From: a virus
DNA length: 30,017 nucleotides
Reading direction: 5' to 3' (one strand)
UHGV virus genome: UHGV-0128346
Positions 11,683 to 24,339 of the stretch are shown here, one piece after another. The notes below the pieces were generated by a model, which had not been told where the DNA came from, ran no database searches, and was given only the letters and a program-made list of their open reading frames with translations. Numbering within the stretch: position 1 is the first letter of the stretch; every line of letters begins with the position of its first letter. The translations under genes were made by a program, and so were the position numbers.

Positions 11683-11740
11683 TTCCTTGCCGCCCGTGCC
11701 TCCCAGCGCGGGCTTTTTTATCCAAAAAATACCCCTCCGG
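11683..11740. terminator. Back-to-back intrinsic terminators sharing a T6/A6 tract (plus-strand hairpin ~11683-11704, minus-strand hairpin ~11721-11740)
   Basis: GCCCG...CGGGC followed by TTTTTT on the plus strand; TACCCCTC-CGGA-GAGGGGTA preceded by AAAAAA on the plus strand, i.e. followed by U6 on the minus strand. Confidence 0.6.
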
Positions 11741-12028
11741 AGAGGGGTATCATACAAGGGGATGACCATGATGCATGGTGCCGGGTGCCTCCCGGTGAGT
11801 CCGGCATCAGCATACGAACCCGCGATTATCCCAGAACTGACTGCTGATTCGCCCCGCCGCTTAGGGGGATTCACCATGCGTTTTTTTATTTACAAACTCT
11901 TCGCCAGACAAACAACCATTAACTGGCTGAATTGTGAGGTATTTCAATTTTTAGAAAACTGACCAACCTCCGCTTATACGCCGGGCATGGAGCGGATACA
12001 AAAAAGCCCCGCAAAAGCAGATCAGAAG

Positions 12029-20780: not shown

Positions 20781-20942
20781 AGTGACATCCTCATGTGCGA
20801 ATTTTGAAAACTCACCACATGGGACGCCAATCACAGAGGTGGTGAGACGTACAGGGTTGGCGTAACCGGTCGCACATGACCCCGGCGCATCTTTCGATGC
20901 CCCTGCACGCCCCACCATAATTTGGATGTGAGGAAACGTGCG

Positions 20943-20966
20943 CAAAAAAACCGCTGAAGCGCGGTT
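20943..20966 (-). terminator. tR1-like intrinsic terminator in the early-right operon
   Basis: ACCGC-TGAAGC-GCGGT hairpin followed by U7 on the minus strand. Confidence 0.5.
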
Positions 20967-21376
20967 ATGCGCATGTGCGAATTTCAGGACGCCAATCCCG
21001 GCACCCGCTTTATAAGGTGCCTGAACAGTGTAACGTCCCGGAATTGCAGAATCAATATGCTGGTGGTCCTTCACACTCAACAAAATCACGCCTGAATTTC
21101 CACAAAGGACTAAAGCACTCATGCGGGTAGTCTTTGCGAAGATAGATAACGCGCTGTGTTTCTGGCTCCCAACGAATAACATGGACATAAAGCCCTCTTC
21201 CGTCACGAAACCAGCGGTTAAGTTCCTGCACAACTCGCCCCCCACAGTCAGGTAAAGTTCTCTGTGGTTACTTACAGCCAGGTGATTTGGTAATCTGCAT
21301 TCATGCCGTAACAACAGGTGTTCAGCGACGCTGACCACCAGCTGTTGCGACAAACGGTTATTTGCCGTTAAACTAT

Positions 21377-22268: not shown

Positions 22269-22943
22269 ATGAAAACAGTCCATGACATCCGGCGGTCTAA
22301 CGCCAGAAAACTGAGAGATGGTGTTGGCGGGAATTCTTCCTTTGCCACCATGATTGATCGCGAGCCAACCCAGACCAGCAGGTTTATGGGAGATGGTGCT
22401 ACTAAAAATATCGGTGACAGCATGGCACGGCACATCGAAAAATGTTTCGACCTGCCTGTCGGATGGCTTGATCAAGAACACCAGACAACAAACATCACAA
22501 AAAAACCTGATGTTTCAATTACTAACAAACAAATAACGTTAGTCCCTGTCATATCATGGGTACAGGCCGGAGCATGGAAAGAAGTTGGCTATTCTGAGGT
22601 TGATTTGAGCACAGCAGAAACTTATCCCTGCCCTGTACCCTGTGGCGAAATGACTTATATCTTGCGGGTGATTGGTGATTCAATGATTGATGAGTACCGC
22701 CCGGGAGACATGATTTTTGTTGATCCCGAAGTCCCTGCCTGCCACGGTGACGACGTTATTGCATTGATGCACGATACAGGCGAAACCACCTTCAAGCGAT
22801 TGATAGAAGATGGAACACAGCGTTATCTCAAAGCATTAAACCCAAACTGGCCTGAGCCTTACATTAAGATTAACGGTAATTGCTCTATAATTGGTACAGT
22901 AATTTTCTCAGGAAAACCAAGAAGATACAAAATAAAGGCCTAA
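22269..22943 (+). CDS. cI: cI-like prophage repressor (HTH plus S24 LexA-like autopeptidase)
   Basis: C-terminal half matches the S24 fold of recalled P22 C2 and lambda cI (ISWVQAG, GDSM, PGDMIFVDPE, TFKRL, LNPNWP, INGNCSIIG). Confidence 0.85.
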   Translation: MKTVHDIRRSNARKLRDGVGGNSSFATMIDREPTQTSRFMGDGATKNIGDSMARHIEKCFDLPVGWLDQEHQTTNITKKPDVSITNKQITLVPVISWVQAGAWKEVGYSEVDLSTAETYPCPVPCGEMTYILRVIGDSMIDEYRPGDMIFVDPEVPACHGDDVIALMHDTGETTFKRLIEDGTQRYLKALNPNWPEPYIKINGNCSIIGTVIFSGKPRRYKIKA

Positions 22944-22954
22944 TCAATATTTAT

Positions 22955-22978
22955 AACCTGCTTCGGCAGGTTTTTTTA
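22955..22978 (+). terminator. Intrinsic terminator after cI
   Basis: ACCTGC-TTCG-GCAGGT hairpin followed by T7, 12 nt after the cI stop. Confidence 0.7.
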
Positions 22979-22981
22979 TAC

Positions 22982-23015
22982 TTGACAATGTACCATTGAG
23001 ATACATAATGTATCT
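22982..23015 (+). promoter_or_regulatory. PL-like promoter (TTGACA-N16-CATAAT) with overlapping 17-bp palindromic operator AGATACAT-A-ATGTATCT
   Basis: Consensus-like sigma70 hexamers; perfect palindrome across the -10 element; position corresponds to lambda PL/OL. Confidence 0.6.
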
Positions 23016-23462
23016 AAAAGAAACATGCCACAGGCAAGATTAAACAAAATTTGGTTGTAACACGGCGTATGGCACATGCGTCGTTAGCGGTCTGGGGACG
23101 TTAAAGGGGACAATCCACTCCTTGCTCGGGCAAACAAACCAGGTAGCCGGAATGTGCAAGTCAATGATGATGCTGATAAGACGCCTAACCAGCGTGGCGA
23201 TTCGGTTTGACGCCTGGGAAGAGACCAGGACGCAACGATGAGAGCATTGACGAGCAAGGCATAAGTGCTGGTTCAATTCCAGACAGTCCCATTCAGATGG
23301 GAGGGTTGGGCAGGGAAAAGGTCCGTTCGATTCGGACACCGGCAATGCTCTCAGCGTTGTGGTGAATGCGCAGGCTGATGCGCGAAAGACATTGCAGCTA
23401 TTGCGGAAAAGAGCTGTTCGGCGGGGCAATTAAACGCCCGTATCTGGAGGTTAAAGAACAAA

Positions 23463-23738
23463 ATGAAAGTCCAGATTTTAAACAATAGTGGTGAAGTCGT
23501 TTGGTCATACGACATAGCCGCTCCTGTAGATCAGAGCGGCGATAGCTGGACCAATGGGAAACATCAGATTATGGCTGGAGTTGTATTCTCTTTACGCCGT
23601 GCTTTGGAACAGGCTGAAGTCTTTCCATCAGACCCTGAATGGAAATGGCCTTTTTCTATTTGTCCAAATTCGGAGAGTACATTTCAGAAAATTGGTCAGA
23701 AAGTCGCACTCGAAGAGCATCAGCCAACTGTTTCCTGA
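23463..23738 (+). CDS. Hypothetical protein (91 aa), first ORF of the early-left operon; not N-like
   Basis: ATG with GGAGG 13 nt upstream; acidic, no arginine-rich motif; 3' end overlaps the convergent minus-strand ORF by ~83 nt. Confidence 0.4.
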   Translation: MKVQILNNSGEVVWSYDIAAPVDQSGDSWTNGKHQIMAGVVFSLRRALEQAEVFPSDPEWKWPFSICPNSESTFQKIGQKVALEEHQPTVS

Positions 23739-23901
23739 TTTTTTCAGGTAACTCGTCGGCATCGCAGAAACAACAACGCTCGATCATGTTGAAAGCCGAT
23801 TCGTAGAACTGTTTCTGCTGAGTGTCGCTGAGACAGGAAAAGAGCGACGTTACGATGATTTTATTAATTGCATTATCAAGTTCTTTTTCATCAAAAGTCA
23901 T
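23656..23901 (-). CDS. Hypothetical protein (81 aa) antisense to the early-left operon
   Basis: ATG with AAGGA ribosome-binding site at 7-nt spacing; composition looks protein-like. Confidence 0.4.
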   Translation of the reverse strand: MTFDEKELDNAINKIIVTSLFSCLSDTQQKQFYESAFNMIERCCFCDADELPEKIRKQLADALRVRLSDQFSEMYSPNLDK

Positions 23902-24156
23902 TTGATTTTCCTTTTATGTATACGGGCTTAAAAGGATACCACCGAGCCTGAAGTGGTGAAAAGACAGGCACATAACAGCTAAGTATTTTCAACCAGAGAG
24001 AATCCTTAGCGTTGTGGTGAATGCGGCTCAGCGCACGCGGGTTAAGGTTGAGGCTGACAGTCGACCTTCTGTGGATACCCACCCGCCTGGTGTGCAACCT
24101 TCGCTAGGCACCGGGAGGCACCCGGCACCACAAGTTTATGCTGTGTGTAGTCCTGG

Positions 24157-24203
24157 CGGTACCAGTTTGTACCCTTGCTTCCGGCTGGTACCGTCCTTTT
24201 TTG
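24157..24203 (+). terminator. tL-like intrinsic terminator in the early-left operon
   Basis: 9-bp stem CGGTACCAG/CTGGTACCG with a 19-nt loop, followed by TCCTTTTTT. Confidence 0.55.
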
Positions 24204-24339
24204 CAAAACAGAGAAGAGCATCACCGGACGACGGGCTCATAACCCAATCCATCCGGGCGGCTGCCACCGCAGGTGTTCTTCTCTGTTTTGTGGAGAAACC
24301 AACCGACCTTGCAGGGTCGATATGATGAGGAGCAGCAAA

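Follow-up and report, generated by a model that had tools for sequence, protein, structure and literature searches.

The DNA analyzed here (hereafter, the window) is a viral genome of 30,017 nt, UHGV-0128346, which is by nature an SfV/e14/cdtI-type lambdoid prophage of E. coli, with a cro-like gene leftward and a cI/YmfK-type repressor gene rightward. The features that lead from the repressor gene into the early-left operon, the last two of which form the convergent pair of open reading frames (ORFs) under study, are as follows.

22269..22943, plus strand: cI/YmfK-type LexA-family repressor gene (an ORF annotated as cI in SfV and as ymfK in E. coli).
22955..22972, plus strand: intrinsic terminator 3' of cI (terminator scan; terminator annotation in SfV and Ayreon).
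22982..23009, plus strand: PL-type promoter, TTGACA-16-CATAAT, with an 11/12 match to sigma-70 (promoter scan; promoter annotation in phage Ayreon).
23010..23462, plus strand: mosaic untranslated PL leader, Ayreon-like up to 23248 and vB_EcoM-720R4-like from 23353.
23463..23738, plus strand: plus ORF, 91 aa, PHROG 3195, the first gene of the PL operon (wobble pattern, dN/dS, and homologues in the same position).
23656..23901, minus strand: minus ORF, 81 aa, PHROG 3311, a counter-oriented cargo gene whose product is a predicted three-helix bundle (wobble pattern and dN/dS).

The preliminary description of this DNA had placed the pair at the head of the early-left operon, and this placement holds: the pair lies downstream of the repressor gene, its terminator, and PL, with a leader of ∼450 nt between PL and the plus ORF. 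At the same position, the SfV leader is only ∼94 nt long. The pair is followed by an STnc100-like, terminator-bearing RNA, after which come early-left genes resembling yfdP, yfdQ, and yfdR. The GC-rich PL leader of the window is occupied by a 129-aa ORF on the minus strand (23040-23429), which is probably spurious, since the leader is mosaic and resembles structured RNA. A different leader motif of ∼55 nt (CAGGCAGGAYGCCCACGAAGTARCCGCC...), located 5' of the plus ORF, is common to SfV and to lineages L004, L087, and L090.

The two ORFs converge and overlap as initially reported; both begin with ATG, and their coding sequences share 83 nt (23656-23738). The plausible ribosome-binding sites that had been ascribed to both were borne out for the minus ORF, where AAGGA lies 7 nt from the ATG, but less so for the plus ORF, whose GGAGG is rather far away (14 nt). 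The frames are offset such that the wobble position of one ORF coincides with codon position 2 in its partner, and codon-position differences were measured in five lineages of 67–92% nucleotide identity along the ATG-to-ATG cassette. In nt 1-192 of the cassette, the mean pairwise differences were 0.416 at plus-frame position 3 versus 0.155 at position 2, and in nt 277-439 they were 0.476 at minus-frame position 3 versus 0.156 at position 2. The variable codon position changes over at cassette nt ∼193-240, and the minus-frame wobble pattern extends from nt ∼241 to 439. Moreover, among eight lineages the median NG86 dN/dS amounted to 0.23 in the plus and 0.15 in the minus ORF. The codon-position switch and these dN/dS values establish that the plus and minus ORFs are protein-coding genes under purifying selection, in agreement with the protein-like composition noted earlier for both. 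The alternative, in which one of the two is a chance antisense frame of the other, could appeal to the overlap, where from nt 241 onward (cassette nt 241-276) constraint is visible in the minus frame only, and to the plus-ORF stop codon, which drifts among lineages to yield proteins of 91, 93, 107, 122, or 127 aa (the ORF overlap spans 74–176 nt among the lineages measured for it). However, each ORF carries the wobble signature and a low dN/dS in its own non-overlapping region, and both stay intact across genera at 30–65% amino-acid identity, which renders a chance frame very improbable.

The cassette, 439 nt from ATG to ATG, is free of indels in eight lineages, and the corresponding unit measures 436–445 nt in two more distant ones. 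Prophages of E. coli, Salmonella, Klebsiella, and Yersinia carry the 439-nt unit, as do metagenome contigs, and the Klebsiella and Yersinia loci encode both proteins. In contigs with plus-ORF homologues, the repressor is followed by the plus ORF after a gap of 190–310 nt that contains a PL-like promoter; on every such contig, the opposite strand encodes an intact minus-ORF homologue, which is often uncalled. The plus-ORF family was observed solely beside the minus-ORF family. Conservation in related prophages, on which the preliminary description had laid weight, was indeed found, with the plus-ORF partner kept in 10 of the 13 lineages of the minus-ORF family. The partner is missing from the other lineages (L106, L107, and L109/L110), and the minus gene is therefore able to exist alone. 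Distant minus-ORF members occupy the PL-proximal slot in L103 and lie outside this slot in L100, L106, L107, and L108, and they oppose lytic transcription wherever its direction can be read from the flanking genes. The pair has relocated as a unit outside the PL operon in L100, where it resides beside holin/lysis genes, and in L108, where it resides between a HigB-type toxin-antitoxin pair and the immunity region. The neighbors of the distant 81-aa members place these in cargo-gene neighborhoods: in L100, L106, and L107, they are located between or next to Q antiterminator and holin genes and beside Fic/Phd and HicAB toxin-antitoxin pairs, and in L108, the member adjoins the HigB-type pair, in a stretch where no Q was called. 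The 81-aa gene has been overlooked in annotation, being unannotated in SfV and in some of the E. coli records examined.

Neither protein matched a family in Pfam or NCBIfam, neither matched a family of solved fold, and PHROGs 3195 (plus) and 3311 (minus) are both annotated as of unknown function. In PADLOC-DB 2.0, the plus ORF was unmatched, and the minus ORF matched only SspC at an E value of 0.035 over 24 residues. Word-indexed searches of 5.8 billion proteins returned narrow families only, including plus-ORF homologues at 57–71% identity. The minus-ORF family is likewise narrow, as a HMMER scan of 1.84 billion representatives recovered just 21 relatives; its members occur in E. coli, Salmonella, Klebsiella, and Yersinia, the latter two being found via profile search. 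No relative was recovered in two scans of the GTDB species-representative genomes. Small and acidic, the minus protein is soluble, has three predicted helices, and lacks a membrane segment. Its AF2 model has a pLDDT of 74.7, and the predicted model of the plus protein has a pLDDT of 44. The structure-based homology search proposed initially was unproductive, with the three-helix model of the minus protein giving generic matches only. A CCxC motif is invariant among close relatives of the minus ORF, but its cysteines are missing in distant members, and we therefore rejected metal binding as a family feature. Homology to Rac ydaG, ydaF, and sieB, to e14 YmfI/YmfJ, and to a pair in BL21 was also considered, and none was found. 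As for toxin-antitoxin membership, Pfam and NCBIfam gave no family homology, and the two genes are convergent rather than co-transcribed. Two natural recombinants indicate that exchange happens within the cassette: in P0023 (an ENA contig), the N-terminal 33 aa of the minus ORF are fused to a different cargo family from the slot, and P0033 is a plus ORF carrying a foreign C terminus.

Directly upstream of the minus ORF, ∼75 nt (23902-23975) are conserved better than the coding sequence. They contain (i) a hairpin, ACCAC...GTGGT, (ii) an interleaved pairing, GCCTG...CAGGC, and (iii) a second hairpin with many compensatory variants, which covaries over dozens of variants and with its 3' arm borders or takes in the Shine-Dalgarno sequence. 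The plus strand of the window at 23896-23972 aligns with positions 34-113 of P22 sas RNA, where 36 of the last 38 nt are identical, and by this alignment the minus-ORF control region shares homology with that of sieB/sas. The elements placed within or over it are as follows.

23897..23986, plus strand: sas-like antisense RNA domain, in the PL sense (alignment to P22 sas, with the ends set after P22).
23910-23915 pairing with 23930-23935, plus strand: hairpin HP2', within the sas-like domain.
23938-23942 pairing with 23953-23957, plus strand: stem A, within the sas-like domain.
23946-23950 pairing with 23965-23969, plus strand: stem B, in a pseudoknot topology with stem A.
23933..23960, minus strand: putative promoter of the minus ORF, proposed from sequence.

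In P22, sas is an antisense RNA that switches sieB translation (PMC12197685, PMC7067206). A small-RNA sequencing study of P22 infection gives its 127-nt sequence (Table 2) and reports it at 1321 RPM in infected versus 0 in uninfected cells (PMC13397905). The P22 RNA has the PL sense, starts antisense to the sieB start codon, and spans the variable hairpin and the whole block; the sas-like domain of the window is complementary to the start codon, the Shine-Dalgarno sequence, and the 5' region of the minus ORF. P22 phage unable to produce sas reportedly turns abortive. Of the 69 unique variants of the variable hairpin (HP2), 56 are more stable in the PL sense (Wilcoxon p 8e-7, although these variants are not phylogenetically independent). 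The P22 sas sequence together with this strand bias of folding argues that the PL-sense strand is the functional RNA. In agreement with this, 97.4% of the cells in stems A and B are paired and three pairs are changed on both sides, which none of 500 shuffles reached, this covariation resting on few events; folded as a single sequence, the sas-like sequence of the window is no more stable than its shuffles (z -0.56). In this prophage, the sas-like RNA is a prediction at the sequence level. Rfam has no family for this control region, and in annotation the sas-like RNA, lacking an Rfam model, has gone unnoticed. In the distant lineages L106–L108, the region upstream of the 81-aa member differs and contains no sas-like block.

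The direction of the antisense relation that had been suggested at first, namely that the minus transcript regulates the first early-left gene, was not supported by this comparison, as it is instead the sas-type PL-sense domain that covers the ribosome-binding site and the start codon of the minus gene. Two further models of the block were set aside. A 5'-UTR pseudoknot with a Shine-Dalgarno-sequestering hairpin in the minus mRNA is disfavored by the P22 sas RNA and the folding bias, both of which favor a PL-sense antisense RNA. A promoter with an operator was likewise displaced by the PL-sense antisense reading, although a putative promoter that overlaps the block is retained.

This candidate promoter consists of a -35 element, TTCACC (23960..23955), a 16-nt spacer, and an extended -10 element with TG (23941-23940) and TATCCT (23938..23933). 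Its hexamers match at 4/6 and 4/6 positions, which is below the promoter-scan threshold, and a start from it would fall inside the covarying hairpin. The pattern TT(C/A/G)(A/C)CC, a 16-nt spacer, and TGnTAnnCT recurs in distant lineages without hairpins, and conservation begins abruptly ∼9 nt upstream of the -35 element, as would befit a portable promoter. Both observations would suit an alternative explanation, in which the block merely serves the minus gene as promoter and 5' leader, is retained for driving cargo genes, and involves no active antisense RNA. We consider this explanation quite unlikely on three grounds: (i) PL-sense RNA over exactly this block is abundant in P22-infected cells (PMC13397905); (ii) the hairpin arms covary even though the 5' arm coincides with the -10/discriminator region, outside an mRNA started at the candidate promoter; and (iii) folding favors the PL sense, in which the L128 variant forms a G-U pair that would be A-C in the opposite sense. 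We therefore retain the sas-like reading of the block, with the promoter as a putative element overlapping it. The annotated PsieB of P22 lies downstream of the block, within a segment of ∼35 nt that is missing from the window, and the geometry is thus not identical to that of P22, the start codon of the minus ORF following directly after the hairpin. Taken together, the minus gene has a conserved control region of its own and, putatively, its own promoter, in line with the original proposal of an independently regulated, counter-oriented cargo gene.

In P22 and lambda, the superinfection-exclusion gene sieB is, like the minus ORF, counter-oriented in the early-left operon near its first gene, and it is likewise preceded by the homologous block of ∼40 nt and a variable hairpin. 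The converging neighbors differ, however: lambda sieB abuts N and P22 sieB adjoins gene 24, whereas the partner of the minus ORF is the 91-aa protein. A PL-sense RNA is antisense to the translation start of sieB in P22, and a corresponding relation is predicted at the minus ORF. The proteins themselves are unrelated, with SieB having ∼180–190 aa and the minus protein being an 81-aa soluble helical one, and a search for SieB homology (PF14163) found neither a Pfam match nor BLASTP similarity to Rac SieB. In P22, an in-frame internal start also yields the inhibitor Esc, whereas the minus ORF contains no conserved internal start; an Esc-like start was sought, and the only internal Met that is conserved among close relatives (M39) is Leu in distant members. 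Neither protein of the cassette resembles SieB or Esc.

The closest counterpart in layout is ymfJ-ymfI of the K-12 prophage e14, which belongs to the same phage family and occupies the same slot as this cassette. The order in e14 is as in the window, namely a YmfK-type repressor, the first early-left gene, a converging overlapping gene, the block, and an STnc100-like element. The e14 block is identical to that of the window at 47 of 48 nt, and the overlap of ymfJ with ymfI is 63 nt versus 83 nt here; however, YmfJ has no sequence similarity to the plus ORF, nor does YmfI to the minus ORF. Located upstream of ymfI at about 1201414-1201461 of NC_000913.3 (about 3915-3962 of L235, equal to 2501-2548 of L111), the e14 block has neither an RNA nor a regulatory element annotated in RefSeq. 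The ydaF-sieB region of Rac also resembles this pair, with a repressor and small early-left genes converging on a counter-oriented gene (4-nt overlap), but there is no homology to the pair, and no copy of the block was detected in the part of Rac that was examined. K-12 ymfI-ymfJ and sieB-ydaF are both listed as convergent excludons from RNA-seq (PMC12288877), and ymfJ, the e14 counterpart of the plus gene, shows late induction in the SOS response (PMC11002266). As in an excludon, the transcripts must overlap in the window too, for the 83-nt coding overlap leaves no room for a terminator.

The block is not confined to this cassette, being present, taken alone, in 2502 of 5426 complete E. coli genomes (about 46%). 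Besides the cassette and the e14 pair, a third, unrelated pair occurs in BL21. In viral contigs, it lies upstream of at least 25 unrelated families of small cargo ORFs, and 20 of the 25 families have a partner ORF, 60 aa or longer, that converges on them, with overlaps of 0–243 nt. A convergent overlap is therefore generic to the slot rather than special to this pair. Furthermore, partner and cargo families mix freely, such that YmfJ-like, ClpX-zinc-finger-like, and MEFxxLP-type partners occur with different cargoes. Because its sas-like block also precedes sieB, ymfI, and at least 25 unrelated cargo ORFs, the cassette is a new cargo/partner pair, with novel proteins, in the known sieB slot. 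Content of the slot varies even among close relatives, with Ayreon having no cassette and SfIV having other ORFs; E. coli 730V1 (L099) has two cassettes in tandem. The following elements delimit the cassette or adjoin it in the window.

23354..23370, plus strand: left copy of the 17-nt direct repeat GCGTTGTGGTGAATGCG, marking the module boundary with phage 720R4.
24009..24025, plus strand: right copy of the same repeat, at the 5' end of the STnc100-like element.
23989..24204, plus strand: STnc100-like structured RNA ending in a terminator hairpin, a neighbor of the pair (RF02076 score below the gathering threshold).

The tandem cassettes of 730V1 sit between such 17-nt repeats, and recombination at the repeat probably shuffles cassettes. 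Morons and other prophage accessory-gene hotspots likewise place an independently controlled small gene in a phage operon and hold alternative cargoes; in morons, however, the gene is flanked by a promoter and a terminator, whereas the cargo here is counter-oriented and appears to be gated by a conserved antisense element.

These comparisons lead us to an explanation that we favor with moderate confidence, in which the cassette in the sieB slot provides a minus gene that would be expressed in the lysogen and silenced by a PL-sense RNA during lytic growth. In the lysogen, PL would be repressed, and the 81-aa minus gene, a moron-like cargo gene, would probably be transcribed from its own compact promoter. 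Upon loss of the repressor, and in that state only, PL would express the 91-aa plus gene as the first gene of its operon; the PL transcript would comprise, in order, the plus gene, the antisense of the minus gene, and then the structured domain that corresponds by homology to the 3' portion of P22 sas. By analogy with P22 sas, which blocks SieB translation, this RNA would pair with the ribosome-binding site and the start codon of the minus mRNA, and head-on transcription together with antisense pairing would shut the minus gene off in lytic growth. The minus and plus genes would thereby be expressed in mutually exclusive states, in an excludon-like manner. Purifying selection on both genes, joint inheritance of the pair, and homology of the control region to sieB/sas are results of the analysis; where the minus promoter lies, how the RNA is processed, and the silencing as such are inferred steps.

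That the phage's own lytic transcript would silence the minus gene suggests that the 81-aa protein is harmful to the phage. Its action as an exclusion or abortive-infection factor that harms phage development is possible in our estimation, at somewhat less than even chances, and the 91-aa plus protein may be an antidote or an unrelated early protein. An exclusion, defense, or toxin-antitoxin-like function had been put forward for the minus gene at the outset; the context suits it, the slot being that of sieB in lambda, P22, and Rac, but no defense or toxin-antitoxin family was matched. Alternatively, the 81-aa protein could be a lysogeny-associated regulator or fitness factor, acting for example on induction, on host physiology, or on another prophage, rather than in defense. 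In favor of this, the protein is small, soluble, acidic, and helical with no membrane segment, in which it differs from SieB, and the slot hosts very diverse cargo families, with no defense model matched; antisense gating by the phage is, however, most easily explained by harm to lytic growth, and we hold such a role to be rather doubtful.

A more specific reading, compatible with the favored explanation and adding to it a claim on the plus protein, is that the two genes form a couple, in which an 81-aa exclusion factor or toxin made in the lysogen would be countered by a 91-aa antidote made from PL, as a two-strand equivalent of SieB and Esc. Several observations agree with this, namely that the plus-ORF family is found only beside the minus-ORF family, that the 439-nt geometry is fixed and the pair has moved jointly to slots outside the PL operon, and that P22 already shows an exclusion protein being countered by an inhibitor that the phage itself encodes (PMC12197685). 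Yet the minus-ORF family also occurs without the partner (L106, L107, and L109/L110), the overlap links the genes physically regardless of function, partner and cargo families mix freely throughout the slot, and the model of the 91-aa protein reaches a pLDDT of only 44. We regard a functional couple as less likely than not. Similarly tentative, and on balance improbable, is the broadest proposal, in which the sas-like block would mark a general, antisense-gated cargo hotspot of lambdoid prophages, with at least 25 lysogen genes silenced from PL, and the cassette would encode an exclusion factor and its PL-expressed antidote on opposite strands. In the literature searched, we found no description of a sas-type block as a portable gate for many cargo genes. 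If the proposal is true, a 40-nt sequence known only from the 1993 work on P22 sieB/sas would be a portable control module, which would let temperate phages carry genes that help the lysogen but harm their own lytic growth. The block would then also serve as a sequence anchor for mining uncharacterized small prophage cargo genes as candidate exclusion or defense factors, among them the unstudied K-12 gene ymfI, and would supply a testable rule for the on and off states of block-associated cargo genes.

The remaining observations concern neighboring RNA elements. The STnc100-like element at 23989-24204 scores 40.0 bits against RF02076 (E 1e-6), where the gathering score is 47; the counterpart in SfV scores 39.5 bits, and 49.1 bits were obtained for a nearly identical copy in 720R4. 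In K-12 e14, this element likewise comes after ymfI. The possibility that STnc100 is a put-like antiterminator RNA of the HK022 kind was not supported, as the HK022 immunity region contains no STnc100 match at E values up to 1. A full STnc100 sRNA (RF02076, 114.5 bits) is present elsewhere in the window, at 11720-11908 on the minus strand, upstream of the lysis genes; the STnc100-like element after the cassette is a second, diverged copy. Finally, a C4 antisense RNA (75 bits; 20835-20922, minus strand) lies beside isrK (62 bits; 20944-21020, minus strand), and this side-by-side arrangement suggests a c4/isrK module of the P1/P7 or Gifsy type that controls an antirepressor in the early-right region.
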